Shown: positions 34,449 to 50,093 of the stretch, piece after piece
How the letters are laid out: each line of letters starts with the position of its first letter
How positions within the stretch are numbered: position 1 is the stretch's first letter
Sequence record: NC_048202.1
Source of the DNA: Escherichia phage vB_EcoS_swan01
DNA length: 50,865 nucleotides
Strand: one strand, 5' to 3'
Notes under the pieces: generated by a model
Databases searched by the model: none
What the model was told of the DNA's origin: nothing
What the model saw: the letters and a program-made list of their open reading frames with translations, nothing else
Program-made: the position numbers and the translations under genes

Positions 34449-34477
34449 CGTTTTATCTCCTTCGTTGAAAGTAGGGC

Positions 34478-35430: not shown

Positions 35431-35613
35431 TTACTTAATTCTAACTTCAACGTCAATATCTGCGTTAGGGGCGAATAGCTGCGCCTTGCCATTTACACGA
35501 ATTGTAAGAATGTTCTCTTTGCGGCAGTTATCCAGCACTAGGCGATATTTGCCAGCAAACTTAACCATCATTCCCGGCTTGACTTCTCTCATTTTGATGA
35601 TCTTATCCATCAT
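35431..35613 (-). CDS. hypothetical protein
   Basis: 60 aa, AAAGGGG RBS; preceded by a ~200-nt untranslated GC-rich leader. Confidence 0.45.
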   Translation of the reverse strand: MMDKIIKMREVKPGMMVKFAGKYRLVLDNCRKENILTIRVNGKAQLFAPNADIDVEVRIK

Positions 35614-35815
35614 TAACCCCTTTCACATAAATAACCGTTTAATCTTTGGTGACGGGCTTCACTTCGTCGGTAGCCTCAGTTCAGTGACCTATCTAGCGTT
35701 CTGCCTGGTGGCGAGTGTGATAGTTCTGGCCTCACGGTTGGGAATCCTGACACTTCGATCAAGCCCCTGCGTCGCTCCTCTCCCGCAGCAATCCTTGCCG
35801 CCCGTCTATGTGTGT
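35614..35815 (-). ncRNA. candidate structured 5' leader / noncoding RNA
   Basis: about 200 nt between a motif promoter and the next RBS with no credible ORF; GC-rich with long-range complementarity (GACGGGC...GCCCGUC). Confidence 0.3.
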
Positions 35816-35861
35816 ATTATGCCTGGTTATCGTTTTTGAGTTTTAACAAAAAGTGCTATTT
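35816..35861 (-). promoter_or_regulatory. motif promoter-like element (AAAATAGCACTTTTTGTTAAAA, 22 nt, CATAAT)
   Basis: motif overlaps the TAG stop of the lipoprotein gene; -10-like hexamer at canonical spacing. Confidence 0.6.
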
Positions 35862-36128
35862 TGTCTCGACGGTCATATGTTCTGTCTTCGTGCCTTTGCC
35901 ATTGCTTTTCGACACTTCCCAGCTAGTCGTGCCCTTACAGTTGGTGAAGTAAACAGTGCGATCGTCATAGAATCGGTAAACGGTGCAACCGTCAGCGGTG
36001 AATAGCTCCCTTACGCTGTAGTCATCGCCAGGGTTAGCCATCTGCACATTGCCAACATGCGCGCCATCTTCTTTGCATCCGGTCAGGAATGCCATTGCCG
36101 CCAAAACGCTGATTAATGCCTTTTTCAT
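35856..36128 (-). CDS. lipoprotein
   Basis: start at MKKALISVLAAMAFLTGC (signal peptide plus lipobox); ATGA overlap with the upstream gene. Confidence 0.55.
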   Translation of the reverse strand: MKKALISVLAAMAFLTGCKEDGAHVGNVQMANPGDDYSVRELFTADGCTVYRFYDDRTVYFTNCKGTTSWEVSKSNGKGTKTEHMTVETK

Positions 36129-36589
36129 TGCTCTTCCTCTTTGATGATTTCGCGGATCATATCCTGGTAGCGGCTTACGCCCTCGCAAGCCCCAGCCAGT
36201 TTATCCCCTTCCAGGTCCACGATGTTCGGGATTGCTGCCAGTATGCGATCGGCAAACTTTTTGATCGCCCTTGCCTTGATGGCTGGCAATTCTTCTGGTG
36301 TGATGATTTTCCTTTTCGATTCGCGGACCATGCGGAAAACGTAAAATTTATCATCTTCCGTTTCCTCTACCTTGATACTTACCCGACCTGCGGCCCTTAC
36401 TTCTGGAACGCGGTTGATAATGGTCCGGCTGTAGGATGAACTGCGCGTGATCTTGTAGCAGTCGTCACCGCTTAACATTCCGGCCAGGTCAATTAGTGAC
36501 ATTTTATACTCTTCAATATCGCCACTAGCCAGGCGGCGACCAAGCTCGCGAAGCCAATCGCAATAGTCCTTAGTGGTCTTCTGTTCCAT
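36125..36589 (-). CDS. hypothetical protein (first gene of a leftward operon)
   Basis: start at MEQKTTKDY with GGAGGAAAGGA RBS, about 30 nt downstream of a consensus sigma70 promoter. Confidence 0.55.
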   Translation of the reverse strand: MEQKTTKDYCDWLRELGRRLASGDIEEYKMSLIDLAGMLSGDDCYKITRSSSYSRTIINRVPEVRAAGRVSIKVEETEDDKFYVFRMVRESKRKIITPEELPAIKARAIKKFADRILAAIPNIVDLEGDKLAGACEGVSRYQDMIREIIKEEEQ

Positions 36590-36620
36590 TTCCTTTCCTC
36601 CAGTTGTTGACTGTTGGCGC

Positions 36621-36649
36621 ATTATAAAAGCTATTTGGTGCGTGTCAAT
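36621..36649 (-). promoter_or_regulatory. consensus sigma70 promoter (TTGACA-N17-TATAAT)
   Basis: perfect -35 and -10 hexamers with 17-bp spacer read on the minus strand, upstream of gene 36125..36589. Confidence 0.65.
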
Positions 36650-36789
36650 GTTTTTGTTGTATTCAAAACGTTACCAATATCGAAAAACTACAAAATCATG
36701 CGCAAGTTATTGATTTCAGGGCTGTTATTTTTCTGTTCACGCTGTTAACGCAATCCGCCGGAAAAAGTATATATACATATGCAATCCGC

Positions 36790-36960
36790 CGCGCGCGCAA
36801 CTATCCATATATACCCACACACAACCACACCATAACCAACAAAAAGCACTGTAACAGTGAGAACAAAAAGAAAACATTATAGATATATATAAATAAATAA
36901 TCTTTATTTTCAATGTATTATAGAGGGATTTTTTTGTTTTTTTCGTTTTCGCTACACCGG
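36790..36960. repeat. AT/CA-rich intergenic element, related to the one at ~6640-6800
   Basis: shared strings ccacacacaaccacacc...aacaaaaag and ataaataaataa; direct repeat gcaatccgccg x2; inside a 660-bp non-coding region. Confidence 0.5.
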
Positions 36961-37083
36961 AAAACCGCGCGGAAACACGCCGCCTGAAATCGGTAACAGG
37001 GGTGAACAAAAGACAACAACCGCTGACAGCCAGGCGGAAAAGTGAGGCAAGAGGGGAAGGTTTCACTATCTCCCCTGCAACCA

Positions 37084-37180
37084 ATGATTAAACGTGATTA
37101 CTTTTCTCATCAAATTTGCAAAGGCAATCATCATTTTGACGTGATTTGATTACGAATGATTACTTTTGATTATTTCGATC
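37084..37180. repeat. iteron-like direct and inverted repeats of ATGATT/TGATTAC
   Basis: at least 5 copies of (A)TGATTAC(TTTT) within ~100 bp just upstream of the first rightward motif promoter. Confidence 0.5.
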
Positions 37181-37201
37181 ACAATCCTGGTGCTAACCGT
37201 C

Positions 37202-37247
37202 AAATAGCACTTTTTGTTAAAAATCAGGCCGCCTGATCGGGTACATT
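37202..37247 (+). promoter_or_regulatory. motif promoter-like element (AAATAGCACTTTTTGTTAAAA, 22 nt, TACATT)
   Basis: first promoter of the rightward small-gene block; leader CATCGAAACGAACC precedes the RBS. Confidence 0.6.
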
Positions 37248-37282
37248 ACACACATCGAAACGAACCGCTCAGGAGATAGTAA

Positions 37283-37555
37283 ATGAACATCAGCAAAACC
37301 ACTTTCAATTTCGCTAAGCGTCACGGTCTGGAACTGACTGTTGAAGATTTTGGCGATGTTCTGCAACTCTGCATTTGGGAAGCAGATAACGATTGCGAGT
37401 GGCTTTGCTCTTATCGTATCAACTACGATTGCTTGACCTGGCACGGCAATATCTATCTGCCGCAAGAAGTGAAAGAAGAATTGCCAGCGACTATCAACAA
37501 CGAAGTTTTCTTGCGCCAGGTGCTGAAATTTATCAGTAAGGAGATCAAAAAATAA
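37283..37555 (+). CDS. hypothetical protein
   Basis: 90 aa, AGGAGA RBS. Confidence 0.55.
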   Translation: MNISKTTFNFAKRHGLELTVEDFGDVLQLCIWEADNDCEWLCSYRINYDCLTWHGNIYLPQEVKEELPATINNEVFLRQVLKFISKEIKK

Positions 37556-37821
37556 TGGCGGTGATTACCGAAAATGATTTGGATCTGGCGGAGGCGTTTT
37601 GCAGGGCCGCCAGGGCTAACCTGGATGTGACCACTAAATTTCTTCCGGCGCGACCACTCTTTTCGTGTGCGCCCGTGAATAAACCGACTCGCGTAATGAT
37701 CGTGATTGAAGGTGATGGCCTGTACGCTGAAAAGACGTTCCACATCAGCAACATTAAGGGCCGTGCTGATTTTATCAATGATGTTTGCTTATTGCAGGAG
37801 AAGAAAAAATGTTGGATGTGA
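37555..37821 (+). CDS. hypothetical protein
   Basis: TAATG overlap with upstream gene. Confidence 0.5.
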   Translation: MAVITENDLDLAEAFCRAARANLDVTTKFLPARPLFSCAPVNKPTRVMIVIEGDGLYAEKTFHISNIKGRADFINDVCLLQEKKKCWM

Positions 37822-38018
37822 TCAAGAAAGCACATGAGATGGGTATGGATGTTTTAATCACTGACGCGCGACGCTATAACCGCTCAATGCCTGAAAATAT
37901 GGTTGTAGTCATCGTGCATAATCTTAAGTTTGAATGCCGCGCAATTTTTGAGAAGCAGGATAAAGAGTCTCAACGCTGTTTTATCAACGAAGTTTGCGAT
38001 CTGTATGGGAGGATCTGA
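37809..38018 (+). CDS. hypothetical protein
   Basis: start at MLDVIKK with AGGAGA RBS. Confidence 0.45.
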   Translation: MLDVIKKAHEMGMDVLITDARRYNRSMPENMVVVIVHNLKFECRAIFEKQDKESQRCFINEVCDLYGRI

Positions 38019-38019
38019 A

Positions 38020-38232
38020 ATGTTCAAGAAATTGTTATGGCTGTACCGCTCCAGGCGCAACAAGGGATATTGCAGGGGCACGGAAAGGAATCTTGACCGC
38101 GCTTATAAATACTGCCTGTTGTTGCTCGCCAGTCTGCCGGAAAACAGGAAGGAATATATTGCGCTGCGAGAAATAACAATGCGGATATATAGTTACCGCA
38201 ATAAACTATACGTCTTTAAATCTTTACGATAA
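38020..38232 (+). CDS. hypothetical protein
   Basis: start at MFKKLLW with GGGAGGA RBS. Confidence 0.45.
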   Translation: MFKKLLWLYRSRRNKGYCRGTERNLDRAYKYCLLLLASLPENRKEYIALREITMRIYSYRNKLYVFKSLR

Positions 38233-38244
38233 GGAGTAATAACC

Positions 38245-38508
38245 ATGAAAATTAATGCACCTATTCCAGTTAAGCGCAAAGCACGTTTGCTAAATAACGG
38301 ATGTTACGCCCTGCGGCCCGCATTTAAGGATCGCACATTTCCGGTTATCGTTAACGTGTCTCACGTAAGCCGTAGCGGAAACCTGGTATTCGTTAAAGGT
38401 GAAGATCTGACGGCACTTGGATTCTATGGCGGTGTTCACGGCGAACCGCTCGGATTCTGGCTTGTAAATCCGTTAACTGGAGAGCGTGAAATCGAATTTC
38501 TGGACTAA
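38245..38508 (+). CDS. hypothetical protein
   Basis: 87 aa, AAGGAG RBS. Confidence 0.55.
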   Translation: MKINAPIPVKRKARLLNNGCYALRPAFKDRTFPVIVNVSHVSRSGNLVFVKGEDLTALGFYGGVHGEPLGFWLVNPLTGEREIEFLD

Positions 38509-38552
38509 ATAGCACTTTTTGTTAAAAACGATGCGCTGCTGATTGGTATAGT
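38507..38552 (+). promoter_or_regulatory. motif promoter-like element (AAATAGCACTTTTTGTTAAAA, 22 nt, TATAGT)
   Basis: motif starts inside the TAA stop of 38245..38508; -10-like hexamer inside an inverted repeat. Confidence 0.6.
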
Positions 38553-38583
38553 AAGCGCATCGACAACAAACGAGGATTTAAAG

Positions 38584-38781
38584 ATGGAAAATCAGGTTGA
38601 TGTTAAAGTTGTTAAGCGCGACAAGTCTCACGAAAAAGGTTTGTTTAAGAAAGGTGCTGAAATCACCATTGACCTTGATGATATGGAGGCGTACCACTCA
38701 GGGCTAACTTGGAATGTTCGCAAATGTGAAAACGGCCTGTTCAAGTTAAATGGCTTTGAAACATACATGGAGATCATCTAA
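38584..38781 (+). CDS. small protein (possible member of the small paralog family)
   Basis: 65 aa. Confidence 0.5.
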   Translation: MENQVDVKVVKRDKSHEKGLFKKGAEITIDLDDMEAYHSGLTWNVRKCENGLFKLNGFETYMEII

Positions 38782-38993
38782 TGGCAAAGCAATTAAAACT
38801 TAAATGCGTAGAAACTTATAACTCAACTTGGAGATTTACGCGCGGAAAAGAATACCCGCTAATGGGAAATCTCAAAGAAGATCCTCATGTAATTTCAGAT
38901 AATGGCCTTCACCTTTATTTAATGGAATACAACGATGGCTATATTGGTGCTGGTGTTCCAGGCCATAAATTTAAGATGAAAAATAAGAAATGA
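38781..38993 (+). CDS. small protein, member of a paralogous family
   Basis: LKCVETYNSTWRFTRGKEY...LHLYLMEYNDG resembles 34227..34448 and 33985..34230. Confidence 0.5.
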   Translation: MAKQLKLKCVETYNSTWRFTRGKEYPLMGNLKEDPHVISDNGLHLYLMEYNDGYIGAGVPGHKFKMKNKK

Positions 38994-39101
38994 GGCTATT
39001 TATTTTCAAAAATGCCTGGATGGTAGCGGTTGCAAATGACCATTACGGCGGCGACGGAAAAAGAGCACGACGCCATTCATATTTCAATTGAGGATATTTA
39101 A

Positions 39102-39329
39102 ATGAAAGCAAAAGTTTTAAACATTATGTCAACTATTGACGCTCATCACCGCGTGGCTGTAAAACTTGATAAGTCTTGTGGAATTAGCCAAATCACTATC
39201 ACCGAGGGCAAAGGCGGCTATCTTATCGGTATCCATCCAGGCGGTAAGGTGCGCAAATACAATAAAGATCAGTTAAAAGAATTACTGGAAGAAAACGCTT
39301 TCTATATTCAAAGTTGGCGTGCTCTTTAA
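39102..39329 (+). CDS. hypothetical protein
   Basis: 75 aa, followed by a terminator. Confidence 0.5.
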   Translation: MKAKVLNIMSTIDAHHRVAVKLDKSCGISQITITEGKGGYLIGIHPGGKVRKYNKDQLKELLEENAFYIQSWRAL

Positions 39330-39334
39330 TTAAT

Positions 39335-39358
39335 ATGGCGGCGTTTTGCCGCCTTTTA
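39335..39358 (+). terminator. rho-independent terminator
   Basis: ggcggcg-tttt-gccgcc hairpin plus T-run. Confidence 0.65.
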
Positions 39359-39370
39359 AATGAGGTGGAA

Positions 39371-39487
39371 ATGATAGATAAGGCTATTGATTTCTTTTTT
39401 TATTCGATTATTGGCGCGGTTGGCTTTTTGGTTACTGCTGCTGGCCTGGCTATTATATTGGCTGTTATTAAGGGGATTATGCGATGA
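39371..39487 (+). CDS. small hydrophobic protein (38 aa, below the ORF-track cutoff)
   Basis: ATG with GAGGTGG RBS; predicted single transmembrane helix; stop overlaps the next ATG (ATGA). Confidence 0.45.
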   Translation: MIDKAIDFFFYSIIGAVGFLVTAAGLAIILAVIKGIMR

Positions 39488-39708
39488 GTCAAGACGGATT
39501 TTTTGAGCGCCTTCAAATGGCAGAAGATGCCGGACTAAATAAAGAGGCGGCGCTTGAAGTGGCATATAAAATTAAGAGTCTTGATGAGGCTTTAGGTGAT
39601 ATGGATATGGATCTTGAATCAAGCGCAATATTTGCAGATCCCACTATGATTGTTAATGATTGTGGATGCGATTTCGATCCTGGTTGTCCGCGCTGTTTTC
39701 CGTTTTGA
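39484..39708 (+). CDS. hypothetical protein
   Basis: 74 aa, acidic, C-terminal CGCDFDPGCPRC. Confidence 0.5.
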   Translation: MSQDGFFERLQMAEDAGLNKEAALEVAYKIKSLDEALGDMDMDLESSAIFADPTMIVNDCGCDFDPGCPRCFPF

Positions 39709-39718
39709 GGTAATGACG

Positions 39719-40429
39719 ATGTATAAAGGTTTAATATTCTCCCTATTTGATGGATCTGGTAAAGCAGTTAAAGATTGGGCTGATAATGGCTATAAGTGCA
39801 TTTGCTTTAATGCTGACGGCGGCGATCACGGTGATTACCAGTCAGTGCGCATACAGCATGAGAATATCGAATACGTTAACGTCTGGATTGATGATGCTTT
39901 TTATGTTAAGGCAATCAATAATGAGTGGGGCAATCCTGATTTTATTATGGCGTTCCCTCCTTGCACCGACCTTGCAAATAGCGGATCTCGCCATTGGGCC
40001 AAAAAACGCCTTGAGAATCCATCGTTCCAGGATGAGGCCGCCGACACTTGCAGAATCGCGGCTGATATAGCTGATTATTTCGGTGTTCCTTACATGATCG
40101 AAAATCCGGTTGGCAAGTTGTCAACGTTATGGCGTAAGCCTGATTATACGTTCCATCCGTGCGATTACGCTGGCTATCTGCCGGAAGATGATAAACATCC
40201 CGACTTCCCTGATATTATTCCGGCGCGTGATCGCTATTTTAAGAAAACGTGCCTCTGGACTGGCAACGGCTTTGTTATTCCTCCGCGCGCTTTAATCCTG
40301 CCGAAAGAGGAAGACAAAGATAATCCAGGCTGGGCCAAAACTGGCGGCAAGTCATCGCGCACAAAGATGATCCGCTCCCTCACTCCGCGCGGATTTGCTC
40401 GCGCCGTCTTTGAGTCAAACTCAAAATAG
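39719..40429 (+). CDS. DNA (cytosine-5) methyltransferase-like protein (putative)
   Basis: motif I-like LFDGSG, motif IV-like FPPCTD...SG and motif VI-like ENPVG in the canonical order; start could also be ATG 39713. Confidence 0.45.
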   Translation: MYKGLIFSLFDGSGKAVKDWADNGYKCICFNADGGDHGDYQSVRIQHENIEYVNVWIDDAFYVKAINNEWGNPDFIMAFPPCTDLANSGSRHWAKKRLENPSFQDEAADTCRIAADIADYFGVPYMIENPVGKLSTLWRKPDYTFHPCDYAGYLPEDDKHPDFPDIIPARDRYFKKTCLWTGNGFVIPPRALILPKEEDKDNPGWAKTGGKSSRTKMIRSLTPRGFARAVFESNSK

Positions 40430-40469
40430 CACTTTTTGTTAAAAGCCAGGTGTAAAAACCTGGCATAAT
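40424..40469 (+). promoter_or_regulatory. motif promoter-like element (AAATAGCACTTTTTGTTAAAA, 22 nt, CATAAT)
   Basis: TAG stop of the upstream gene lies at motif positions 4-6; inverted repeat in the spacer; leader CATCGAACAAACAAAGGAG. Confidence 0.6.
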
Positions 40470-40498
40470 CACATCGAACAAACAAAGGAGATCTGATC

Positions 40499-40885
40499 AT
40501 GAATGTTATCTGTAATGAAACCAACGTATTGATGAAAGGCCGTTTTAAAACGGTTTATCAGAAGATTGCAGGAAGTGATGATGTGATCGAGGTGGAAGAG
40601 TTCCAGGTTAAGACGCTTGTTAAGGGTAGCCGCTGGCTTCCAGCAAACCGAGATGATTACCGCGCCATTAACACAAAAACCGTTCTTTGCACGTTTGTAG
40701 ATCATAACATGCCGTGCAAAAAGCACTTTAAGCAGGGCAAGCGATACCAGATCGAGAAAGGGCGACCGCTTGGAAGCGTTGCGGGTTATGTTTTTGATGA
40801 GTGCGGCGACCGCTGGAACCTGTACCGTGAAGAGGTCGGATTCTCTGCTGGCGGCTGTTATCTGTTTGAGGGCAAATATCTGTGA
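40499..40885 (+). CDS. hypothetical protein
   Basis: 128 aa. Confidence 0.5.
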   Translation: MNVICNETNVLMKGRFKTVYQKIAGSDDVIEVEEFQVKTLVKGSRWLPANRDDYRAINTKTVLCTFVDHNMPCKKHFKQGKRYQIEKGRPLGSVAGYVFDECGDRWNLYREEVGFSAGGCYLFEGKYL

Positions 40886-41103
40886 TAAACAGTGAAAACC
40901 GTTACAAAGTAACGCATTCTACCACAAAGACTTTCAAGCCTGGCGATATAGTCAGGCCCATCAAAAAAACTGCGGTAGGTTGGCTGATTGGTTTTTCATA
41001 TCATAAGGCGCTTTACTTTACGTTTAAGGATGGGATTACAGGAGAATGCTACAGCGACCGCCAGCCTGATCGACTTCTGGTTGCAATAGAGCGGATCAAA
41101 TAG
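40882..41103 (+). CDS. small protein (possible member of the small paralog family)
   Basis: 73 aa; TFKPGDIV motif resembles MFKPGEIY of 34227..34448. Confidence 0.5.
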   Translation: MINSENRYKVTHSTTKTFKPGDIVRPIKKTAVGWLIGFSYHKALYFTFKDGITGECYSDRQPDRLLVAIERIK

Positions 41104-41143
41104 CACTTTTTGACAAAACGGGGTAGTATTGGGACGTTAAAAT
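41098..41143 (+). promoter_or_regulatory. motif promoter-like element (AAATAGCACTTTTTGACAAAA, 22 nt, TAAAAT)
   Basis: variant with TTGACA in place of TTGTTA; TAG stop embedded; precedes the 526-aa P-loop protein gene. Confidence 0.55.
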
Positions 41144-41171
41144 TTACGGCCCACAAAGGAGAAGCTAACGA

Positions 41172-42752
41172 ATGTTTTCATTAGAAACGAACAAATTAAC
41201 TCCACAACAAATAATCGCTATGGCTGAAAGCCAGAACCTCTCACCAGTTCGCGTATCAATTCAGGCTAACGGCTATCGCCAGTCGTCCAGCTTTTGGGGC
41301 GACGTAAAGGATGTGAATAGCGGTCACGATCGCTACCCCGTTATTTCTCTTGGTAATGATATTGATGTTGTCGGCAAGTTATCACGCAGCATTGCGCGAT
41401 CCGTTCAATTCCCTGAATCATCGGCTTACATGCACTTTATCGGCTGCATTTCTGCCGCTATGCTTGGACGCTTTACGGTTGACTATCACGGAACCGATCA
41501 GCCGACTGCGCTTTACGTCGTTACAAGCCAGCCGCCGTCAACTGGTAAATCTGCGATCAACAGCATGGCTATTGCTCCGATGATTGCGGAAGTTGAGAAG
41601 ATCAACGAGCAACGCCGCAAGGAAAGAAAGAAAATACAGGCAAAGCTGGCAGGTCTTGCAAAGGAGATGAAAAGCGAAAGATCCGGCGCTGATATGGAAT
41701 CTCTATACCAGGAAAAAGAGGATCTGGAGGAAAAGCTGGAAAAAATGTGTGATATAACTTTTCCTGTTTCAGATACAACTCCAGAAGGCTTGGCGAAAAT
41801 CAACAACAAGCAAGGTAACTTTGCCGTAATATCTGATGAAGCAACAAGTATTAACAGTCTGTTAGGCTTGACCTATGCAAATAGCGAAAGGAAGACTAAC
41901 AGTGAGTTAGTGCTTAAGGCGTGGGATAATGGTCACGTATCAATTGCCCGTGCTAATGCTGACAATAATATGAGTTTTCGCGCGCTTGGATGTATGAGCG
42001 TCATAGCCCAGGATGAAACGATAAGCGGAATCATGGACGCTGGATCGCGAGGCATCGGTGTTAGTGAGCGTTTTTTGTTGGTCCGCGAGGAATCATTCTT
42101 AGGCCGTCGCTCATTCATTGATGAAAATGGTGATTCTACCTATGAGGCGGTGGATTCTGAATTGAAAGCCCAATATTATCAATTGGTGCATAACATCATG
42201 AGCGAATCAAATATATCGCTGAAAATAAGCCGTTCAGCTATGCGAGTGCTCAACATTGCTCGCCAGGATATGGAACCGCATCTTGCAGACGGAGGAAAGT
42301 ATTCTCATACAATGTTACGCGGTGCGCTGGGTAAAATGGATAAACAGGTGATCAGGCTTGCTTCCGTCCTGCATGTTATCCGTAACTGGTTTAATCCTGC
42401 CGGATACCCGCAGAAGTCGAAAGAGATCGACGTGGAAACAATGCAAGAGGCGTTGATCATGTTTCAGGAATTGAGCAAAACATACATTAGCGCCGCCAAT
42501 GCTTCTGGTTATGCTGGTGATGATGCTGAAATGGGTAAATTGATTGAATTGATCACGAGGCACGGCAAGGCTAATAAAGGGATTCTGAATATCCGCGCCC
42601 TGTACGAATCAGCGAGAAAGGTAAAACCTTTCGTTGGTCAGGCTGGCGTAATGAAAAGGATAGAAGGGCACTTACTGCCAATGCTGGAAGAAAGAAATTA
42701 TGTTTGTGTGATTAATGGTGTTATTTTTGTCAATCCAATACTGCTGGGATGA
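41172..42752 (+). CDS. P-loop NTPase, replication-associated (putative)
   Basis: 526 aa; Walker A-like SQPPSTGKSA; no further family assignment possible by eye. Confidence 0.5.
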   Translation: MFSLETNKLTPQQIIAMAESQNLSPVRVSIQANGYRQSSSFWGDVKDVNSGHDRYPVISLGNDIDVVGKLSRSIARSVQFPESSAYMHFIGCISAAMLGRFTVDYHGTDQPTALYVVTSQPPSTGKSAINSMAIAPMIAEVEKINEQRRKERKKIQAKLAGLAKEMKSERSGADMESLYQEKEDLEEKLEKMCDITFPVSDTTPEGLAKINNKQGNFAVISDEATSINSLLGLTYANSERKTNSELVLKAWDNGHVSIARANADNNMSFRALGCMSVIAQDETISGIMDAGSRGIGVSERFLLVREESFLGRRSFIDENGDSTYEAVDSELKAQYYQLVHNIMSESNISLKISRSAMRVLNIARQDMEPHLADGGKYSHTMLRGALGKMDKQVIRLASVLHVIRNWFNPAGYPQKSKEIDVETMQEALIMFQELSKTYISAANASGYAGDDAEMGKLIELITRHGKANKGILNIRALYESARKVKPFVGQAGVMKRIEGHLLPMLEERNYVCVINGVIFVNPILLG

Positions 42753-43144
42753 TTATGTTTTTGCTTGATCTGTATAAATGGTGTGAGTCATACGACTGGT
42801 TTAACAGGCAGCACATAGCCAAATTTATCTATCAGCATAGAGAATGTGAGCGGCTCGCACGGGCCGCCGGACTTACTCCGCGAATGTTCGCCAGCCTTGC
42901 ATCTAAGGAATTTTGCGCAAGAATGATGACGGCTGGCTATATAGATGGGGTATGCGGTAAATACTGGTCCAAAGGATCGTCAAAGCGGCCTTTCGGATTC
43001 GAATTTTATAGCCTGGATGGTATGCGCAACGACTGGATCAGGGATATGGCTAGAATAGTGGAGATGGGCGATGATGAATTGTTCCAGGCAAAAGCTAATA
43101 GACAAGATCTTGAAGCACTGCGCCGTAAATTCAATATCACATGA
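42749..43144 (+). CDS. hypothetical protein
   Basis: 131 aa, ATGA overlap with upstream gene. Confidence 0.5.
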   Translation: MIMFLLDLYKWCESYDWFNRQHIAKFIYQHRECERLARAAGLTPRMFASLASKEFCARMMTAGYIDGVCGKYWSKGSSKRPFGFEFYSLDGMRNDWIRDMARIVEMGDDELFQAKANRQDLEALRRKFNIT

Positions 43145-43265
43145 TGATTTTATTCATGCTTTACTTACGCTACTTTATTCAGATATGCGAGCTTTTAGCA
43201 CCACTGAACATGTTTTATGCAATGATGATGGTGTGTTATTGGTTACAGTAAAGCGTATGGAATAG
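43071..43265 (+). CDS. hypothetical protein (uncertain start, overlaps upstream gene)
   Basis: its TAG stop is embedded in the conserved motif as for other genes, but the ORF overlaps 42749..43144 by 74 nt. Confidence 0.3.
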   Translation: MMNCSRQKLIDKILKHCAVNSISHDDFIHALLTLLYSDMRAFSTTEHVLCNDDGVLLVTVKRME

Positions 43266-43305
43266 CATTTTTTGTTAAAACTCCCGACCTTGTGTCGGGT
43301 ATATT
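43260..43305 (+). promoter_or_regulatory. motif promoter-like element (GAATAGCATTTTTTGTTAAAA, 22 nt, TATATT)
   Basis: hairpin cccgac-cttgtg-tcggg in the spacer; leader CATCGAAACGAACC. Confidence 0.55.
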
Positions 43306-43342
43306 TGTTTCATCGAAACGAACCAACCAAAAAGGAAAAATT

Positions 43343-43567
43343 ATGTACAGCAAGTTTTTAGTAGTTCGCGTATACAATCATGCAAATGGATCTTCTTCTG
43401 AAATCCCGACAGTTTACGATAAGGATTCAGGCTGGAGTGAGCAATCGGCGGTTGAAAATGAGCGCAAGATTGCAGAAATGTACGGCGACACTTGCAGCAT
43501 TGAAGTAAGGCAGTACGACGAATCGAACAAGCCAACAAACGAAACTCATATGTGGCCCGACGCATAA
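43343..43567 (+). CDS. hypothetical protein
   Basis: start at MYSKFLV with AAAAAGGAAA RBS. Confidence 0.5.
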   Translation: MYSKFLVVRVYNHANGSSSEIPTVYDKDSGWSEQSAVENERKIAEMYGDTCSIEVRQYDESNKPTNETHMWPDA

Positions 43568-43570
43568 AAA

Positions 43571-43598
43571 TAAAGGAGGCATTAAGCCTCCTTTTTCT
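43571..43598. terminator. bidirectional rho-independent terminator
   Basis: aggaggc-attaa-gcctcct hairpin plus T-run; overlaps the 3' end of the spanin gene. Confidence 0.6.
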
Positions 43599-43974
43599 TT
43601 TCTCTCCAGTAAAGACAAATCAGCACAATTAACACAACCACGCATATGATTACCGGATCGTACCATCTGCCGTTATTACCCTGCACGACATGAATTTTGT
43701 CTGCCTTGATGGTATTGGCCTGAATGGTTGATGTTGTGAAATCCTTCTTGCTGGACGTGTCCACCTTGTCAACCGCAGATTCCTTTATTGTGGTTTCCTG
43801 TTTTGTGCTGGCGTCCTGCTTTGCTGTAATGCCAACTGTCTGCTTCACGTTCTCCGCTCCAGCCTGTGCTGTGATTTCCGGCTTACTGCCGATTAATCCG
43901 GTCAGTGGCGTAACGCTTGAACATCCAGACAAGATCACCGCCATTGCGATTGGTGTAAGTAAAAAATTCTTCAT
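43582..43974 (-). CDS. unimolecular spanin (lipoprotein with C-terminal transmembrane anchor)
   Basis: N-terminal lipoprotein signal [18 protein letters not shown] and C-terminal TM helix VIICVVVLIVLICLYW, the architecture of T1 gp11-type u-spanins; immediately after the endolysin gene. Confidence 0.6.
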   Translation of the reverse strand: MKNFLLTPIAMAVILSGCSSVTPLTGLIGSKPEITAQAGAENVKQTVGITAKQDASTKQETTIKESAVDKVDTSSKKDFTTSTIQANTIKADKIHVVQGNNGRWYDPVIICVVVLIVLICLYWREKKKEA

Positions 43975-44465
43975 CATTTCAGATCCATTGTGCAATATTT
44001 GTATTCGACCTTGCGCCTGTTAAGTAATCCTTTAGACTTCTCGCGCTTTCCTGTTTTTGGGTTATGGTAATAAGTCCAACGATAAAGCTGATCGCAAGCC
44101 TCGTTTAATTTCCCCTGGTTGATGAGTTTCAGCATTGTTGAATTTCTGAAAGCCCCCACACCTGCATTGTAAGTGAATGAGTACATTGCTGCACGCATAC
44201 TATCAGGAATATCAACCTTAACTTTCTTGTCAACTTCCTTTTTAGCAACCTGGATATGCTTAGCCAACAAAGCATCACACTCTTTTTTAGTGTACGTTTT
44301 CCCCAGGATAACATCTGGTCCGGTGATTCCTGCGCAAACCGTCCATACTCCAGCAATATCTTTGTATGGCTTGTATCTTACCCCTTCGATCTCTTCAAGA
44401 AGTGGAGAAGTCAAGGCAACCGCAACGCCAAAGGCCGCAGCCGCTACCCTGTTCTTTATGCTCAT
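43974..44465 (-). CDS. SAR endolysin (GH24 lysozyme)
   Basis: N-terminal signal-anchor-release segment [17 protein letters not shown] followed by T4-lysozyme-like catalytic region ([22 protein letters not shown]). Confidence 0.8.
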
Positions 44466-44680
44466 TACTTGCCCCTGATTTCAATAGCTTTTTGAATATC
44501 ACCTTTTTCGATCGCTTCGTGGAATTTTTTACTATCACGCCAGCGAAGGTAAGCGCCCCATGCACCGAATGCAGCCATTAAAACAAAGCTGGCAATAGCA
44601 ATGGTTAACTGCCCTGTAGCGGCGCTTGCGATAGATGAACCGCCAGATCCAGCGGTAGCTGCGTTAATAAAATCTTTCAT
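44465..44680 (-). CDS. holin (pinholin-like)
   Basis: 71 aa, two hydrophobic helices and charged C-terminus; precedes a SAR endolysin. Confidence 0.6.
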
Positions 44681-44703
44681 TTTTATTCTCCATATTAATT
44701 AAA

Positions 44704-44717
44704 GTCAATATATTGAC
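44704..44717. promoter_or_regulatory. perfect 14-bp palindrome GTCAATATATTGAC upstream of the holin gene (operator-like)
   Basis: exact inverted repeat about 25-40 nt upstream of the holin start. Confidence 0.4.
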
Positions 44718-44825
44718 CGAATGATAAACGTACATGGTAAAAAATTAAACAAAAAAAAGAGGCGACAAACGCCGCCCCTTTGCAAGTTTTTGATTTAATT
44801 TGTCATTGATTTAAATAAAAATTCA

Positions 44826-45941
44826 TCAATTCATCATTTCTGGATAGTGAACAAATCGCCCAACCTCTCCATGCTCTTTGTCGTAAATGATAACCGCCGC
44901 ACGGCGTCGAGATCTCCAGCCACCTCGCGCGGCGTATGCGTCTTTTGCCGCCAGGGTGCTATGCACCTCAACGATGCCAAGCGACGTTTCTGTCACGGTC
45001 TGGTGATGCCAGTGCCCTACGTGCGCATACATCGTTTTTGAGTTTCCGAAGTCCTCCCGCCAATCTGACGCGCACATCATTAGCAAAGTCTCCGGTTTAC
45101 GCACTGTGTGCCCGTGATGGTACGCAAGGAAAGTTTTTCCGTATTGCGTGTGGTGCACAACGCGAGGTGAAACATCAACGTAAACGCGCGGCTCGTTTTC
45201 ATATGCTGCCGCCATTGCTGCGCGCAGCCAAATCATTCCTGATTGGTCATGATTGCCCTCTACGATCTGGACTTCAACATGTTTATGCTTTAACAACATT
45301 TTATTGATTGCGCGTCGCATTGCACGGATGGCAACGTAAACCAATTTTGCATATCGACTATCTTGATCCAGTACGTGACCGCTTGCAGGTGTAACCGCCT
45401 CCAGGCCGTCGCTATGCAGCATATCGCCACCAATCAGGATGACAGCCTTTTCGCTATCCGGTGCGCACATTAAAGCATAGTCGATAAAGTTATTCATAAC
45501 GCGCTCTGCCGTGGCAGTATCCCAATTTTCGCCGCATTCGTGCTTATGGGCCATAGCTCCTAAGTGCATGTCAAAGATCGGATACAAGGAAAGCGTTTCG
45601 TTATAGTCGCGCTCCTGTAATGGAACCGGATCTAATCGCGGCACTTCCTCGCTAAATGCCTCCATTGCTGCGAGCATTAATGCTTCTAATTGCTCTTTAT
45701 CCTTGCTGGTTTTAGTCCACTTTAGGATTATGTTGCCTTCTTTGTCAGTCATTACTGACTCACCATGAACTCCAAAACCAGGCGCTCCAATGGTGGATAC
45801 CTGGCCTTGCTTTGCAAGTCGCGCCGCGCGACGCTCGACGCTTCTCACATTCATTCCGTACTCTTGAGCGATCTGTTTATATGTCTTACCCGCCGCCCGT
45901 TCGATCTTGAATTGCTCATCTGTAATTTTTACATTTTTCAT
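44826..45941 (-). CDS. calcineurin-like metallophosphatase with N-terminal HTH-like domain
   Basis: GDMLHSD and GNHD metallophosphoesterase motifs; N-terminal TYKQIAQEYGMNVRSVERR helix-turn-helix-like segment; start at MKNVKIT with AGGTGG RBS. Confidence 0.6.
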   Translation of the reverse strand: MKNVKITDEQFKIERAAGKTYKQIAQEYGMNVRSVERRAARLAKQGQVSTIGAPGFGVHGESVMTDKEGNIILKWTKTSKDKEQLEALMLAAMEAFSEEVPRLDPVPLQERDYNETLSLYPIFDMHLGAMAHKHECGENWDTATAERVMNNFIDYALMCAPDSEKAVILIGGDMLHSDGLEAVTPASGHVLDQDSRYAKLVYVAIRAMRRAINKMLLKHKHVEVQIVEGNHDQSGMIWLRAAMAAAYENEPRVYVDVSPRVVHHTQYGKTFLAYHHGHTVRKPETLLMMCASDWREDFGNSKTMYAHVGHWHHQTVTETSLGIVEVHSTLAAKDAYAARGGWRSRRRAAVIIYDKEHGEVGRFVHYPEMMN

Positions 45942-46035
45942 TCTGCCACCTATCTCATCACTATATGGTACATAACTGTAACAGCGATGATAACGGGTAA
46001 CGGTAGAACAAACAAGCGCCACATGATAACTATCC

Positions 46036-46278
46036 TCATTTATAATATTTGCGAGGCTCTCGGATTTTAGCCATTGCCTCTTTGAAATCAATTTTTGTTG
46101 GAACTGCTGGAACTCTTACCATTTTTCGCGGCCTTTCCTTGAGGAAAGTCATCTTATCGCCGCTAATTATGCTCACATCTGCAATATCAAAGTATTGCGC
46201 GATCTTCTTTATATCGTCGGCTATTCCGCATTCTTTAGCGTGATTCCATACCGCCTCTCTACCTTGCTCAACCTTCAT
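46036..46278 (-). CDS. hypothetical protein
   Basis: start at MKVEQGREAV inside track ORF 46036..46299. Confidence 0.45.
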   Translation of the reverse strand: MKVEQGREAVWNHAKECGIADDIKKIAQYFDIADVSIISGDKMTFLKERPRKMVRVPAVPTKIDFKEAMAKIREPRKYYK

Positions 46279-46453
46279 GCTTATAATATGCCTCAGCAAA
46301 TTCTAATGGGTAGTGACCATATGCAACGCGAAGTAGAATCATTGCAGCGCCCCAATCAAGCTGCATATTGTTTTTCGTTCCACCTTTTACCGCATCGCGT
46401 GCTGTTTGTTGCGCCTGGTCAAATGCTTTCTTGCTGTATACTACCATTTTCAT
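46268..46453 (-). CDS. hypothetical protein
   Basis: 61 aa; leader CATCGAAACGAACGTGAGGAAATGAAA from the motif promoter. Confidence 0.5.
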   Translation of the reverse strand: MKMVVYSKKAFDQAQQTARDAVKGGTKNNMQLDWGAAMILLRVAYGHYPLEFAEAYYKHEG

Positions 46454-46479
46454 TTCCTCACGTTCGTTTCGATGAAATA

Positions 46480-46525
46480 ATTATGCCCGACAAAATGCCG
46501 GGCGTTTTAACAAAAAGTGCTATTA
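46480..46525 (-). promoter_or_regulatory. motif promoter-like element (AATAGCACTTTTTGTTAAAA, 22 nt, CATAAT)
   Basis: follows the stop of 46523..46780; inverted repeat in the spacer; conserved leader. Confidence 0.6.
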
Positions 46526-46784: not shown

Positions 46785-47510
46785 TTAGCTCCGTTTGCGC
46801 GCGCGGCGTTCGGTTACAGAAGGGCAAATATCGCTGATCTTAACGTATCGCGTTTTCTGCTCTTCGCCTTCTTTAAGTTTACGCATGACAAAAATCACGC
46901 TCCCCTTATTGTTGCCCTGTACAGGCTCGCCAGTCAATCCAGACACAAAGGCGATTCTTCCGGTGCGGGAATATTCCACTCCCCCCTCTTCGTAAACCTC
47001 GCCAGTGATCCAGATGATTTCAGCCGCGTTTTTCTGCGCCTCATAAAACCATGCTGTAGAGTTGTCGGATGGCAACAAAACATCAATTTGGTTGTTGTGC
47101 TCCATTTGCTCAATTGCTTTCTTGATAAATGGAGTTGGGTTGCTGTACGGCGGGTTAAGCCATACGTGCTTGTTGCTACCCCACCAACGCTTTAAGCAGT
47201 TTGTTTCCTTGCTATAGAACTTCTCGCAAACTGCGTTTTCATGGCTTGCTGCCGCGTCGAGATCGTATTCACCAAATTCTGATTCCATCCACTCCACGAT
47301 CTCTTGAGGCGTGCTCCACATATCGCGCACAACGTCCGGCGTAGTGCTTCCAGCGTATCGGTTGCCGCTTACCTTATAATATTGATTTGGCTTTACTGCC
47401 TGGTAATGGCCTCCAGTTGCAAGGGCATTCCCTATAAATGTTTCTCTCTCCAACTGCTCAAAGCTAACGAATGCGTCATGGGTGTCTTTATCTAAAATAT
47501 CTTTAGCCAT
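46785..47510 (-). CDS. DNA N6-adenine methyltransferase (phage Dam-type)
   Basis: DLDAAAS and NPPY motifs in the order typical of phage Dam-family MTases; 241 aa. Confidence 0.7.
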   Translation of the reverse strand: MAKDILDKDTHDAFVSFEQLERETFIGNALATGGHYQAVKPNQYYKVSGNRYAGSTTPDVVRDMWSTPQEIVEWMESEFGEYDLDAAASHENAVCEKFYSKETNCLKRWWGSNKHVWLNPPYSNPTPFIKKAIEQMEHNNQIDVLLPSDNSTAWFYEAQKNAAEIIWITGEVYEEGGVEYSRTGRIAFVSGLTGEPVQGNNKGSVIFVMRKLKEGEEQKTRYVKISDICPSVTERRARKRS

Positions 47511-47549
47511 TTCATTTCTCCGCTATTAAAAGCTATCTCGTGTTATTGA

Positions 47550-47595
47550 ATTATGGCGCAATCCATCGCGCCAGTTTTAACAAAAAGTGCTATTT
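47550..47595 (-). promoter_or_regulatory. motif promoter-like element (AAATAGCACTTTTTGTTAAAA, 22 nt, CATAAT)
   Basis: TAG stop of the VRR-NUC gene embedded in the motif; drives the Dam gene. Confidence 0.6.
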
Positions 47596-48009: not shown

Positions 48010-50006
48010 TAAACAAACTCCCGTTTTGCAATGTTATCCTCACCTTTGCCGTTTTTGCGATGCGTTACGCGTACAGGCGGCATGATGTGATGAGCGTATG
48101 ACATTATTTTACGAGCATTTCTATAGCTCGCCACCATACCAGCAATCTTGCGATCCGGTATGTGCTGCAATGCTATTTTTCTCCATATCGTCCGGCAAAT
48201 GTTGCTTTCTGACTCAGGGAAAAATCTTTCGTATGCCTTGAACGTGTCGCCGTTGGCCTCAAGCTCATAGCAAAAAATAATTCCTTTCTGGTTTTTCGTC
48301 ATATCAACGCGGAAAGATTTAACGTTGCACCAATCGTTTTTGGTGTAGTGCTTACCGCTTAACTTCTCGTTAGGATCGACAAGAGAAATATCGCAACAAC
48401 GGCATACTCTCGCCACTACGTCGTTTTTTGTTCCGCAACCGCGCTTGATTATCTTTTTCGTTCTCTGATCTACCTGGTCCTCGCAAATTCTGTAAGTCCA
48501 AAAATGCTCACATCGCTTCCCGTTATCGTCTACGTGCATACATCGGCGAGCGTAAAAGCTGTTTAGCGTTCCACATATCGGACAAGTCTTAGGCTCTTTC
48601 CCGTTTGTAAATCTCTTTTGGAATTGCGCTTGCTCAAGGATTGGATCGAAATACAAATCACCTAACTCATCCATAGTACCTGCAAAATCCAATACAAGAT
48701 GATCTTTTTTCTTGAATCCCTGCTCAATGTGCCATTGCTTAAGCAGTCGCATGCCGCGCCCCAAAAGCTGGATAAGCAATGTTAGAGATCCTATCTTTCT
48801 CAGTATTACAGAAGTATCCCAAAACGGAACGTTAACGCCAGTGGTAAGCGCCTGTACCTGGAAGATGTATTTTACTTTTCCCTCGTATGCCTCCCTCAGC
48901 CACTCTTTACGCTGATTATCTCCAGTCTTGCCAGTTATGATCCTGTATTCAACGCCTGGCGGCAGTGCGGCGGCAGCCTCCTTGCAGTGCCTTTCCCCTG
49001 CGCATGTAACTAAAACTCCGTTCCTGTCTTTGCATATCTCATGGACTTTAGCCATGATTTTCTGTGTCATTGTTGCGTCTTGATGGATCTTTTCTTCCAT
49101 CTTGCGCAATGTTTTAGCGTCAAAGTCTGAAACGCCATCCTCGCTACTGGCTTCGAACTCTGAAAGGTCATAACCCAGGTCGCCTACGTCGCCGAAGTTT
49201 GTTGGCACTACCGAACCGAATTTGATTAAGTAGTTTGTGTCTATGTTAGTCACCTGCTCACGCCAGAATCCATTTTTGTTCTTATCTTCAACCAGTATTG
49301 GAACCACGCCGCGAAACTCAGATCCAGTCATGCCGAATATTCGCAATTCGTGCCCGTATGCCTCGCGACACCTACGCATCATTTCCATGATTATTACGGT
49401 GTACTGTGTGCGCCCTGTTCCGAACATTGGATCGCCATTGGAATCAAATTGCTGTTCTTCTCCAATCAGTACAGGCAAATCCTTCTTAGTGGTCATCTGC
49501 TGGTAAGATTCATTATTTTCTATCGCGTCCGCGAGATCCTCCCAATCCACCTGGTGACATTCATCAATACCGATAACGTGCGGAACATAATCACCTAACG
49601 ACTTAAACAATCCGTTTACTACAGTGCCCTCAGAACCGACTACGATCGGAAAGTATGCGCTTTTTGTTTTCAGTCCGGCGCAATAGATTGAGTTTGGCAC
49701 GCCAAGATTGCTGATCTCTTCCGAATCCTGATCAACAATTTCAGCCTGGCGAGCAAGGACCATCATTTTCAATCCCATTTTGCGGCATTGCGCCGCAACC
49801 ATCGCAAACATCAATGTTTTGCCAGCCGATACAGAAGCCTTAACAAAGAAAGGATGCTCATAGTTTTTCATGCGCTTTGCGATCTCTGCATACGCAACGC
49901 ACTGATAAGGATAAGGCACTATATTGCCAACCGTGAATCGCTCTTGGATGCTTTTTATTACTGCCTCGCCTAATGCTGATATTTGTTTTTCGATATTTGG
50001 AATCAT
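48009..50006 (-). CDS. SF2 DNA helicase (DEAD/DEAH-like) with C-terminal Cys-rich domain
   Basis: Walker A VSAGKT, DECH box, and multiple CxxC pairs in the C-terminus. Confidence 0.8.
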   Translation of the reverse strand: MIPNIEKQISALGEAVIKSIQERFTVGNIVPYPYQCVAYAEIAKRMKNYEHPFFVKASVSAGKTLMFAMVAAQCRKMGLKMMVLARQAEIVDQDSEEISNLGVPNSIYCAGLKTKSAYFPIVVGSEGTVVNGLFKSLGDYVPHVIGIDECHQVDWEDLADAIENNESYQQMTTKKDLPVLIGEEQQFDSNGDPMFGTGRTQYTVIIMEMMRRCREAYGHELRIFGMTGSEFRGVVPILVEDKNKNGFWREQVTNIDTNYLIKFGSVVPTNFGDVGDLGYDLSEFEASSEDGVSDFDAKTLRKMEEKIHQDATMTQKIMAKVHEICKDRNGVLVTCAGERHCKEAAAALPPGVEYRIITGKTGDNQRKEWLREAYEGKVKYIFQVQALTTGVNVPFWDTSVILRKIGSLTLLIQLLGRGMRLLKQWHIEQGFKKKDHLVLDFAGTMDELGDLYFDPILEQAQFQKRFTNGKEPKTCPICGTLNSFYARRCMHVDDNGKRCEHFWTYRICEDQVDQRTKKIIKRGCGTKNDVVARVCRCCDISLVDPNEKLSGKHYTKNDWCNVKSFRVDMTKNQKGIIFCYELEANGDTFKAYERFFPESESNICRTIWRKIALQHIPDRKIAGMVASYRNARKIMSYAHHIMPPVRVTHRKNGKGEDNIAKREFV

Positions 50007-50038
50007 CTTAAACCTTTAAAAAATGCCATTTGGAGTAT

Positions 50039-50082: not shown

Positions 50083-50093
50083 GAGGTGACTAG

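Follow-up and report, generated by a model that had tools for sequence, protein, structure and literature searches.

The stretch of DNA analysed here (hereafter the window) is the whole 50,865 nucleotides of sequence record NC_048202.1 from Escherichia phage vB_EcoS_swan01. The 8-kb stretch 36000-44000 shares 99.2% identity with Escherichia phage tunzivis and 98.7% with phage tonn, a T1-like siphovirus of ~50 kb classified in Warwickvirus, Tempevirinae, Drexlerviridae. Because these relatives are so similar, and tonn is of that length, the 50.9-kb window is a near-complete genome of a T1-like coliphage (Warwickvirus, Drexlerviridae). Dispersed through it are promoter-like cassettes that begin with a 21-nt direct repeat (DR). 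Our subject is the 13-nt sequence CATCGAAACGAAC, which an earlier note on this DNA had described as a conserved, initially transcribed leader downstream of several such promoters.

The 13-mer occurs exactly three times in the whole window (Table 1) and in 0 of 100 dinucleotide-preserving shuffles, which rules out a chance origin. There is also a longer variant, CATCGACAACAAACGAGGA, with a one-mismatch copy, CATCAACAACAAACGAGGA, that was likewise absent from shuffles, and a sixth copy, CACATCGAACAAACAAAGGAG, near 40470. All six lie downstream of a TAGCACTTTTTGTTAAAA-type motif, the DR. Counted from a −10-like hexamer, the A of CATCG is the seventh base in five of them and therefore the expected +1. 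The earlier note was right to place the leader directly after this hexamer, as it starts at the predicted +1 (C−1/A+1, 7 nt after the −10), and right to extend the conserved element to about 65 nt, the unit from DR to +13 measuring about 62-65 nt. Its six sites are real, although the positions it gave are the low ends of the upstream motif and not those of the leader.

Weaker relatives of the leader follow two more DRs, p6870 (CATCCAACAACAAC) and p35858 (ACACACATAGAC), and the remaining DR promoters of the window have different A/C-rich leaders, such as ATTGAAGCGAAAC, ACCAATCAACGAG and ACTTTCAACGAAGG. A MAFFT alignment of 14 window promoters, a check that had been proposed, yields the consensus ...GGTATAATnnnCnCATCGACAAnAAAnGAG; the shared leader is found in a subset and other A/C-rich leaders in the rest. 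The 13-mer is a subfamily consensus and no universal part of the DR element. It is common to several promoters, as claimed, but leaders of this type (L1-type) make up ~36% of promoter clusters and are no general part of the motif. No antisense partner, in the form of a reverse complement of the 13-mer, was found elsewhere in the window.

The upstream motif is a published repeat, a fact that the earlier note overlooked along with the hairpin and the mobile-cassette character described below. Phage TLS has a 21-nt DR with the consensus aaATAGCACnnnTTGnTAAAA in 18 intergenic copies (DR1-18) that are co-oriented with transcription, lie ~76 nt before start codons and fall into TTT and GAA subtypes; similar 21-nt repeats have been noted in T1, Rtp and Rogue1 (PMC11447400). 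The authors of this 2024 re-annotation found only three sigma-70-like promoters in the TLS genome and left the function of the DRs open, naming a stoperator, an enhancer site or an UP element (PMC11447400). The window motif meets the TLS consensus in 17 copies at ≤3 mismatches, where 0.06 are expected, and one more DR, of GAA type, at 31750 brings the total to 18. After 15 of the 18 there is a −10-like hexamer 18-20 nt past the motif end, usually 19. In tonn, DR copies lie 71-83 nt before 15 annotated starts and one more at 97 nt, and the window is laid out alike. Four window DRs are exceptions: three are reverse or antisense (905−, 17650+, 21403+) and one is co-oriented and has no −10 (26247−). 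The fixed 19-nt distance to the −10, the hairpin, and the conserved start and leader are new relative to the TLS paper.

DR loci were collected from IMG/VR, and those of T1 and tonn were added; the statistics below draw on up to 558 unique DR promoters from Drexlerviridae-type viral contigs. The first IMG/VR scan, with a degenerate DR pattern, brought in many single chance matches in unrelated contigs, and these dilute the cluster-weighted statistics (per-column information and cross-cluster pairwise identity). In that first set, TAnnnT lies 18-20 nt downstream of 229 of 293 DR copies, and exactly 19 nt downstream in 204 of the 229. The −10 is a partial extended one, with G at −14 in 75-83% of DR promoters and T at −15 in just 38-46%. 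At the start, C is at −1 in 68-71% (a pyrimidine in ~90%) and A at +1, the seventh nucleotide past the −10, in 71-83%. The leader columns T-C-G-A-A-A-C-G-A-A after +1 carry 0.1-0.8 bits each (cluster-weighted); spacer columns carry ~0-0.15 bits, save one that adjoins the DR and those that adjoin the −10. G−14, C−1, A+1 and the leader columns played no part in site selection. The cassette thus reads, from 5′ to 3′: stop codon of the upstream gene, 21-nt DR, GC-rich hairpin, G−14 with the TAnnnT −10, discriminator, and leader, the last as A+1 TCGA(A/C)AAC(G/A)AAC followed by GAGGA (the Shine-Dalgarno sequence, SD), ~7 nt and ATG.

The DR has the form of a quasi-palindrome, TAGCA-N5-TGYTA, whose centre is near −42. 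No −35-like hexamer was found at 16-18 nt; there is TTGYTA at 22 nt and TTAAAA at 19 nt. A sigma-70 consensus scan calls just one DR promoter in the 20 kb scanned, and a canonical sigma-70 promoter was rejected, since the scan misses DR sites and promoter-like matches overall are not above chance. Sigma-54 promoters have the consensus TGGCAC-N5-TTGCW, with GG at −24, GC at −12 and fixed spacing. This candidate was also rejected, the DR form TAGCAC-N3-TTGC having AG for GG and being 2 nt too short. The DR superficially resembles both the T4 MotA box (TGCTT) and the sigma-54 element TGGCAC-N5-TTGC, but with the wrong spacing. The MotA box is at −30, some 6-7 bp nearer the −10 than the DR.

The leader precedes many different genes. 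Exact ATCGAAACGAA is found at +1 in 86 of the 558 DR promoters, before at least 55 distinct open reading frame (ORF) starts, and several promoters of phage T1, a member of another subfamily, carry CATCGACAACGAACGAGGA, CATCAAAACGAG and CATCGACAACGAAGAG at this point. Within the window, the ORFs behind leader copies show no similarity in the three pairs compared. These dissimilar ORFs, the presence of the leader in T1 and the many ORF starts exclude a recent local or gene duplication, and the similarity goes far beyond two or three copies, the limit that the earlier note had set as its refuting case. Of 22.5 cluster-weighted occurrences of ATCGA, 15.4 are at offset 6 from the −10, whereas the distance from ATCGA to the start codon is mostly spread over 24-33 nt; it is the −10, not the start codon, to which the motif is tied. 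Start-site context is therefore the best supported of the three functions previously offered, the others being a translation enhancer and a site for an RNA-binding protein.

Orthologous promoters show how strongly the leader is maintained. We measured variability as the fraction of variable cells in 59 ortholog-like clusters (≥78% identity, ≥3 sequences). It is 0.028 in the −10 hexamer, 0.088 at +1..+5, 0.076 at +6..+13, 0.115 from +14 to the SD, 0.148 in the SD region, 0.181 in the discriminator and 0.231 in the spacer, and 0.161, 0.107 and 0.293 at codon positions 1, 2 and 3. The leader differs from third codon positions with p=3e-21 and from the spacer with p=9e-19. Individually, A+1, A+5, A+6, A+7 and G−14 vary in 2-5% of clusters, with +4 and +9 looser, and promoters with other leader types are equally constrained. 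Given this low variability among orthologs, the first ~13 transcribed bases, counted from the predicted start, are under purifying selection.

Between the DR and the start lies a hairpin. The mean minimum free energy of the DR-to-+1 region is −8.4 kcal/mol, as against −3.8 in shuffles (p=1e-11). Counted by cluster, 45 hairpins overlap or enclose the −10, 20 are in the spacer and 26 are weak or absent. In the enclosing class the 3′ arm is the C-rich discriminator (e.g. GGGGTT...TATAGT AACCCC, then ATCG); in the spacer class the hairpin is wholly within the spacer and is followed by a T-rich −10 and discriminator. Just two window hairpins, those of p43263 and p46522 (both spacer class), were flagged as terminator-like, and the T1 database record annotates several such hairpins as terminators. 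The arms vary between cassettes in a compensatory manner. Folding is more stable on the sense strand (−8.2 kcal/mol) than on the antisense strand (−6.3 kcal/mol; p=2.6e-11), and 14% of pairs are G-U. The hairpin is therefore selected as part of read-through RNA from the upstream gene; the promoter's own transcript would begin just past it, at the predicted +1. Often a GATC (Dam site) lies just 5′ of the hairpin 5′ arm in the spacer (e.g. 37233-37236; ccGATCaggggta, caccaGATCggggtt), and the phage encodes DNA methyltransferases. A lambda nut-like boxA/boxB reading of DR and hairpin was dismissed by inspection, as hairpin sequences differ between cassettes within one genome.

So, what does the leader do? 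We consider it somewhat more likely than not that CATCGAAACGAAC is a start context (C−1, A+1, T+2) joined to an escape-friendly, unstructured initially transcribed sequence (ITS) and 5′ untranslated region (UTR) of a promoter cassette. Among E. coli promoters, CAT is classically the favoured context for the start. Host RNA polymerase would begin at the A 7 nt past the −10, and the A-rich ITS, with almost no T after +2 and no TG, would allow fast promoter escape. Being poor in G and U, the leader should be unable to pair with the SD or the adjacent GC hairpin, which would favour efficient translation of the first ORF. On its sequence, the leader appears to be the 5′ half of a ~25-nt 5′ UTR and to mark one cassette subfamily used throughout the T1-like phages (Drexlerviridae). 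The cassette, leader included, may serve as a shared junction at which unrelated genes are swapped between phages, as in the promoter-early stem-loops (PeSLs) of T4-type phages; gene exchange at the cassette would then place the same leader before many different ORFs.

Known start sequences fit this interpretation. The first ~10 nt of the ITS can shift promoter escape over about three orders of magnitude, and in slow ITSs the first 7 nt contain 2-3 T and a TG stands near +5/+6 (PMC5961368). The DR-promoter ITS has almost no T past +2 and no TG. The strong T7 promoters A1 (CC, then ATCGAGAGGG) and A3 (CAC, then ATGAAACGACAG) come close to the DR-promoter consensus (CC, then ATCGAAACGAAC), and control of promoter escape by the ITS sequence is established (PMC5961368, PMC12464699). 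Unlike DR promoters, these T7 promoters and those of T5, such as N25 with its ITS studies, have a consensus −35, and their ITS is not repeated as a family motif. The likeness spans 5-9 nt and could be coincidental or convergent.

For translation, the generic effect of an unstructured A/C-rich leader finds modest support in tonn. There the −26..−13 region of DR-driven genes is 44% A, 27% C, 12% G and 17% T, compared with 34%, 17%, 17% and 33% in other genes. Less structure is predicted in the translation-initiation regions of DR-driven genes (−1.9 kcal/mol) than in those of other genes (−3.2 kcal/mol; p=0.011), and the stretch from SD to AUG is slightly more accessible (0.66 vs 0.59, p=0.04). 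The canonical sigma-70 promoters of the window have A/C-rich leaders too. One of these, TTGACA-16-TATAAT at 36648-36621 (−), agrees with the sigma-70 consensus at 12/12 positions, the one perfect match in the 20 kb scanned; it sits where the leftward and rightward blocks of early genes diverge, has the A/C-rich leader ACAGTCAACAACTGGAGG and is likely immediate-early. A second, TTGACT-17-TACAAT, precedes the RecE-like gene (ATG 6438, −).

Several points weigh against a start context with an escape-friendly leader. The sixth copy (p40427) is 3 nt closer to its −10 than the other five. Across promoter clusters, pairwise identity is 0.41 at +1..+5 where composition predicts 0.32, and 0.40 at +6..+13 where it predicts 0.35, so that much of the family-wide signal is compositional (at +6..+13, A is ~50% and T ~7%). 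Within orthologs, single bases are kept tighter than the SD region (0.08 vs 0.15); A/C exchanges should be tolerated if the leader had merely to be unstructured and poor in T, and the tight bases therefore hint at a sequence-specific constraint. CG stands at +3/+4 and +8/+9 of the ITS, formally a match to the Y-G pause dinucleotide. The difference in structure of tonn initiation regions is small, with n=16 vs 68. Finally, no mapped transcription starts or RNA-seq for any T1-like phage were found in the searchable literature, and the +1 is inferred from spacing.

The hint of a sequence-specific constraint leads to the strongest of the alternatives, that +1..+13 is a specific recognition site, either the DNA part of a tripartite promoter with the DR and −10, or a site at the mRNA 5′ end for a phage or host factor (such as a T4 RegA-like repressor, or a stabilising, anti-termination or processing factor) that would co-regulate genes with this leader. 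Among orthologs, A+1, A+5-A+7, C+8, A+10 and A+11 vary almost as little as the −10 and less than the SD, a degree of conservation for which neither composition nor lack of structure would call. The motif keeps its place relative to the 5′ end, and the discrete leader families ATCGAAACGAAAC, ATTGAAGCAAAGCAACCAATCAG and ACACCAACAA, each before many genes, would fit regulons. However, other leader families are under the same degree of constraint, which makes it look general to the ITS, and A-rich tracts of the GAAAC type are also expected of a generic ITS or an S1-friendly leader. Leader type is not tied to DR subtype, no link between the two being found in the 558 DR promoters. Nor was a candidate RNA-binding protein identified; the window has no complementary sequence, and Rfam gives no match (0 at gathering score in the whole window). 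We regard such a site as unlikely, if well worth keeping in mind.

Could the leader instead have no function of its own, its similarity arising from cassette copying and recombination, or at most from homologies that act as recombination junctions? Mosaic boundaries do coincide exactly with cassettes. The coding sequence of the gene starting MKIKITKIDT recurs at five other loci, behind three unrelated upstream genes, and the homology starts exactly at the DR; the window and a close relative have the ATTGAAGCGAAAC cassette before this gene and the other four loci the ATCGAAACGAAAC cassette. Genes orthologous to that behind p30435 have a ATCGAAACGAAACGGAG cassette in other phages. One cassette type (cluster 1) is nearly unchanged, spacer included, before many unrelated ORFs. 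By the annotation of a relative, the phage has genes for RecE-like and Erf-like recombination proteins, and recombination is documented for PeSLs (PMC2839356). Yet L1-type cassettes keep the leader while their spacers and hairpin arms have fully diverged, often in a compensatory way. The leader varies ~3x less than the spacer and ~3.6x less than third codon positions, whereas neutrality would make the rates equal, and gene conversion limited to 13 nt is implausible. Passive copying is thus an improbable source of the conserved leader.

PeSLs are cassettes of the T4-type phages RB49/phi1, PST and nt-1 (Arbiol et al. 2010, PMC2839356; Comeau et al. 2014, PMC4122927). As described there, they comprise an AT-rich upstream region, a promoter, and a GGGG...CCCC stem-loop with G-T pairs between the boxes or over the −10 (PMC2839356); they end in an SD and start codon, and cassette recombination shuffles ORFans (PMC2839356, PMC4122927). 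Promoter, terminator and mini-circle activities are reported there from experiment. On these descriptions, both PeSLs and DR cassettes are intergenic, ~70-95 nt long, and combine an upstream A/T-containing element with a promoter for host RNA polymerase. Both place a GC stem-loop with G-U pairs between the upstream element and the −10 or over the −10, and both end in an SD and start codon before small ORFans at mosaic junctions. The DR cassette differs in belonging to siphoviruses (Drexlerviridae) and in its 21-nt quasi-palindrome (ATAGCAC...TAAAA) near −42. It lacks a canonically spaced −35, where PeSLs are described with an AT-rich tract and a consensus −35, and its positionally conserved start and ITS under purifying selection are not met in those PeSL descriptions. 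The DR cassette therefore appears to be a variant of the PeSL kind and, because the −35 element is absent, no strict member of it.

A bolder extension of the recognition idea is that DR promoters form a factor-dependent class with three parts: the DR dyad at −42, a hairpin-embedded −10 and a +1..+13 box read sequence-specifically. The factor reading the box could be the Cro/YdaS-like regulator encoded at 50094-50570, Lrp or another phage factor. If this were true, the leader families would be temporal or physiological regulons, the role of the 21-nt repeats would be answered, and the ITS would be regulatory and not only kinetic; we consider it improbable. The geometry, a dyad near −42 in place of the −35 together with a good −10 and G−14, recalls class II activator-dependent and extended −10 promoters (e.g. 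CRP or FNR sites at −41.5) and T4 middle promoters (MotA box); the DR is unlike the CRP and FNR consensus sequences.

What might bind the DR? One candidate is the phage's own 158-aa Cro/YdaS-like protein (gene 50094-50570, +), which has weak Cro/YdaS helix-turn-helix matches only; the p50081 DR, on the other strand, abuts the SD of this divergent gene. Another is E. coli Lrp, whose consensus is yAGhAwATTwTdCTr (PMC5554404). By eye, the TTT type of DR agrees with it at 12-13 of 15 positions and the GAA type at 11 of 15, and in the TTGCTA form both arms agree. In a Keio screen of the TLS-like phage LL5, lrp was not among the 8 required genes (PMC7229145), which argues against strict dependence only; Lrp as DR binder is a low-probability lead.

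The DRs at 888-905, 17650-17667 and 50064-50081 are opposite to the adjacent gene and abut its SD (TTTTAACAAAAAGTGCTA-TA-AGGAG...ATG); the genes concerned encode a tail fibre, the tape-measure chaperone and the Cro/YdaS-like regulator. At these sites, a DR-binding factor would be a repressor or roadblock and not an activator. The DR of 17650-17735 (+) has a −10, TAGATT, and is antisense to tail (late) genes, as is its counterpart in T1 (18849, −). Its predicted antisense RNA of ~37 nt (ACAGGAATGAAAAAAGGGGCGCAACGCCCC + TTGTTTT) would end at a bidirectional terminator, an arrangement kept in five sequences of one cluster, and the locus is possibly a small antisense RNA. The DRs at 26247 (26180-26247, −) and 21403 (21403-21420, +) are without a usable −10. 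Close behind the former comes TATATAAT and then, immediately upstream of the portal gene, a strong terminator hairpin (GGCTGGATTTTTCCAGCC + TTTTTTATTAT). The latter runs antisense among the head genes, and T1 too has an antisense copy in a similar place, at 15085 (−).

It is much less likely that the unit is no promoter at all and acts as an intercistronic RNA element (a processing site, 3′-end stabiliser or attenuator), with TAnnnT as loop sequence. The sense-strand preference and G-U pairs of the hairpin do point to transcription from upstream; two hairpins are terminator-like, T1 has several annotated as such, and the sigma-70 scan misses the sites. Against this stand promoter-like features that played no part in selecting the sites: G−14, Y−1/A+1 exactly 7 nt past the hexamer, a hexamer near-invariant among orthologs (0.028), and its position now inside, now outside the hairpin. 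Without the DR sites, some three sigma-70 promoters would be left for a 50-kb genome, as noted for TLS (PMC11447400). The roles are also not exclusive, PeSLs being both promoters and attenuators. Finally, a translational enhancer that pairs with 16S rRNA outside the anti-SD (epsilon or downstream-box type) would fit the position upstream of the SD and the conservation, but we reject this form of enhancer as most improbable, pairing with E. coli 16S rRNA (RNAduplex) being weaker than in 79-100% of shuffles for four 12-13-nt variants and weaker than in 58% for the 23-nt L2 leader.

The individual cassettes of the window are listed in Table 1. Most ORFs downstream of DR promoters have no Pfam match; the 65-aa ORF of p38510 (38584-38781, +) has a full-length match to Pfam PF25180, 'Phage antiviral trigger protein Gp54' (E=1.7e-38). 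Between the p35858 promoter and a 60-aa ORF at 35613-35431 (−) lies a GC-rich leader. In tonn the same DR is just 97 nt before a 297-aa gene, and the window therefore appears to carry an insertion here. This long leader shows no excess structure (fold z=+0.84), and 35560-35880 has no Rfam match at E≤1.

Table 1. Features of DR promoters in the window; minus-strand elements are given from high to low coordinate, start sites are predicted.
Promoter	Feature	Coordinates	Strand	Details
p37205	DR aaATAGCACTTTTTGTTAAAA	37202-37222	+	exact motif match; same consensus as TLS repeats
p37205	−10-like hexamer TACATT	37242-37247	+	19 nt after DR
p37205	leader CATCGAAACGAAC	37253-37265	+	predicted +1 A37254
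p37205	5′ UTR	37254-37282	+	SD AGGAG 37271-37275; ATG 37283; 90-aa ORF
p43263	DR gaATAGCATTTTTTGTTAAAA	43260-43280	+	motif match
p43263	spacer GC hairpin CCCGACCTTGTGTCGGG	43283-43299	+	fold; flagged terminator-like
p43263	tail TATATTTGTT after hairpin		+	terminator-like; made of −10 hexamer and discriminator
p43263	−10 TATATT	43300-43305	+	discriminator TGTTTC
p43263	leader CATCGAAACGAAC	43311-43323	+	predicted +1 A43312; ATG 43343; 74 aa
p46522	cassette	46462-46525	−	DR 46525-46505; hairpin 46503-46485; −10 CATAAT 46485-46480
p46522	leader CATCGAAACGAAC	46474-46462	−	predicted +1 A46473; ATG 46447; 59 aa
p38510	cassette	38507-38586	+	DR 38507-38527; hairpin 38532-38559 around −10 TATAGT 38547-38552
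p38510	leader CATCGACAACAAACGAGGA	38558-38576	+	predicted +1 A38559; ATG 38584
p33070	cassette	32993-33073	−	DR 33073-33053; hairpin 33042-33021 around −10 TATAGT 33032-33027
p33070	leader CATCAACAACAAACGAGGA	33021-33003	−	predicted +1 A33020; ATG 32995; 87 aa
p40427	cassette	40424-40501	+	DR 40424-40444; spacer hairpin 40445-40464; −10 CATAAT 40464-40469
p40427	CATCGAAC (part of leader)	40472-40479	+	ATG 40499; 128 aa
p6870	DR promoter	6867-6945	+	related leader TATAGT tgCATCCAACAACAACTAAGGAG; ATG 6943
p30435	DR promoter	30358-30438	−	variant leader ATTGAAGCGAAACAGAGGA; hairpin AAGGGCA/TGCCCTT around −10 TAAAGT
p31750	GAA-type DR promoter TAGCACGAATTGCTAAAC	31672-31753	−	−10 TATAAT; leader ACCAATCAACGAGAGGA
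p34520	DR promoter	34446-34523	−	hairpin GGGCC/GGCCC around −10 TATAAT; leader ACTTTCAACGAAGGAG
p41101	DR promoter	41098-41174	+	upstream of 526-aa helicase ORF
p47592	DR promoter	47508-47595	−	spacer hairpin; upstream of 241-aa ORF
p50081	DR promoter	50004-50084	−	upstream of 665-aa helicase ORF
p35858	DR promoter	35770-35861	−	discriminator ACACAC as in p37205, then ATAGAC...; leader ~196 nt

T1-like phages are classic and very common coliphages with an essentially unmapped transcription programme. The present finding extends a known but unexplained repeat: it places the DRs 19 nt before a −10-like hexamer in ~15 promoter-like cassettes per genome, and puts the predicted first 13 transcribed bases among the most constrained non-coding positions. 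It offers concrete start-site predictions and a natural set of ITS and leader variants for studying promoter escape and leader function. It would also extend the PeSL idea of mobile promoter/stem-loop cassettes from T4-type myoviruses to an unrelated siphovirus family, in which the cassette boundaries may be natural junctions for engineering T1-like phages.

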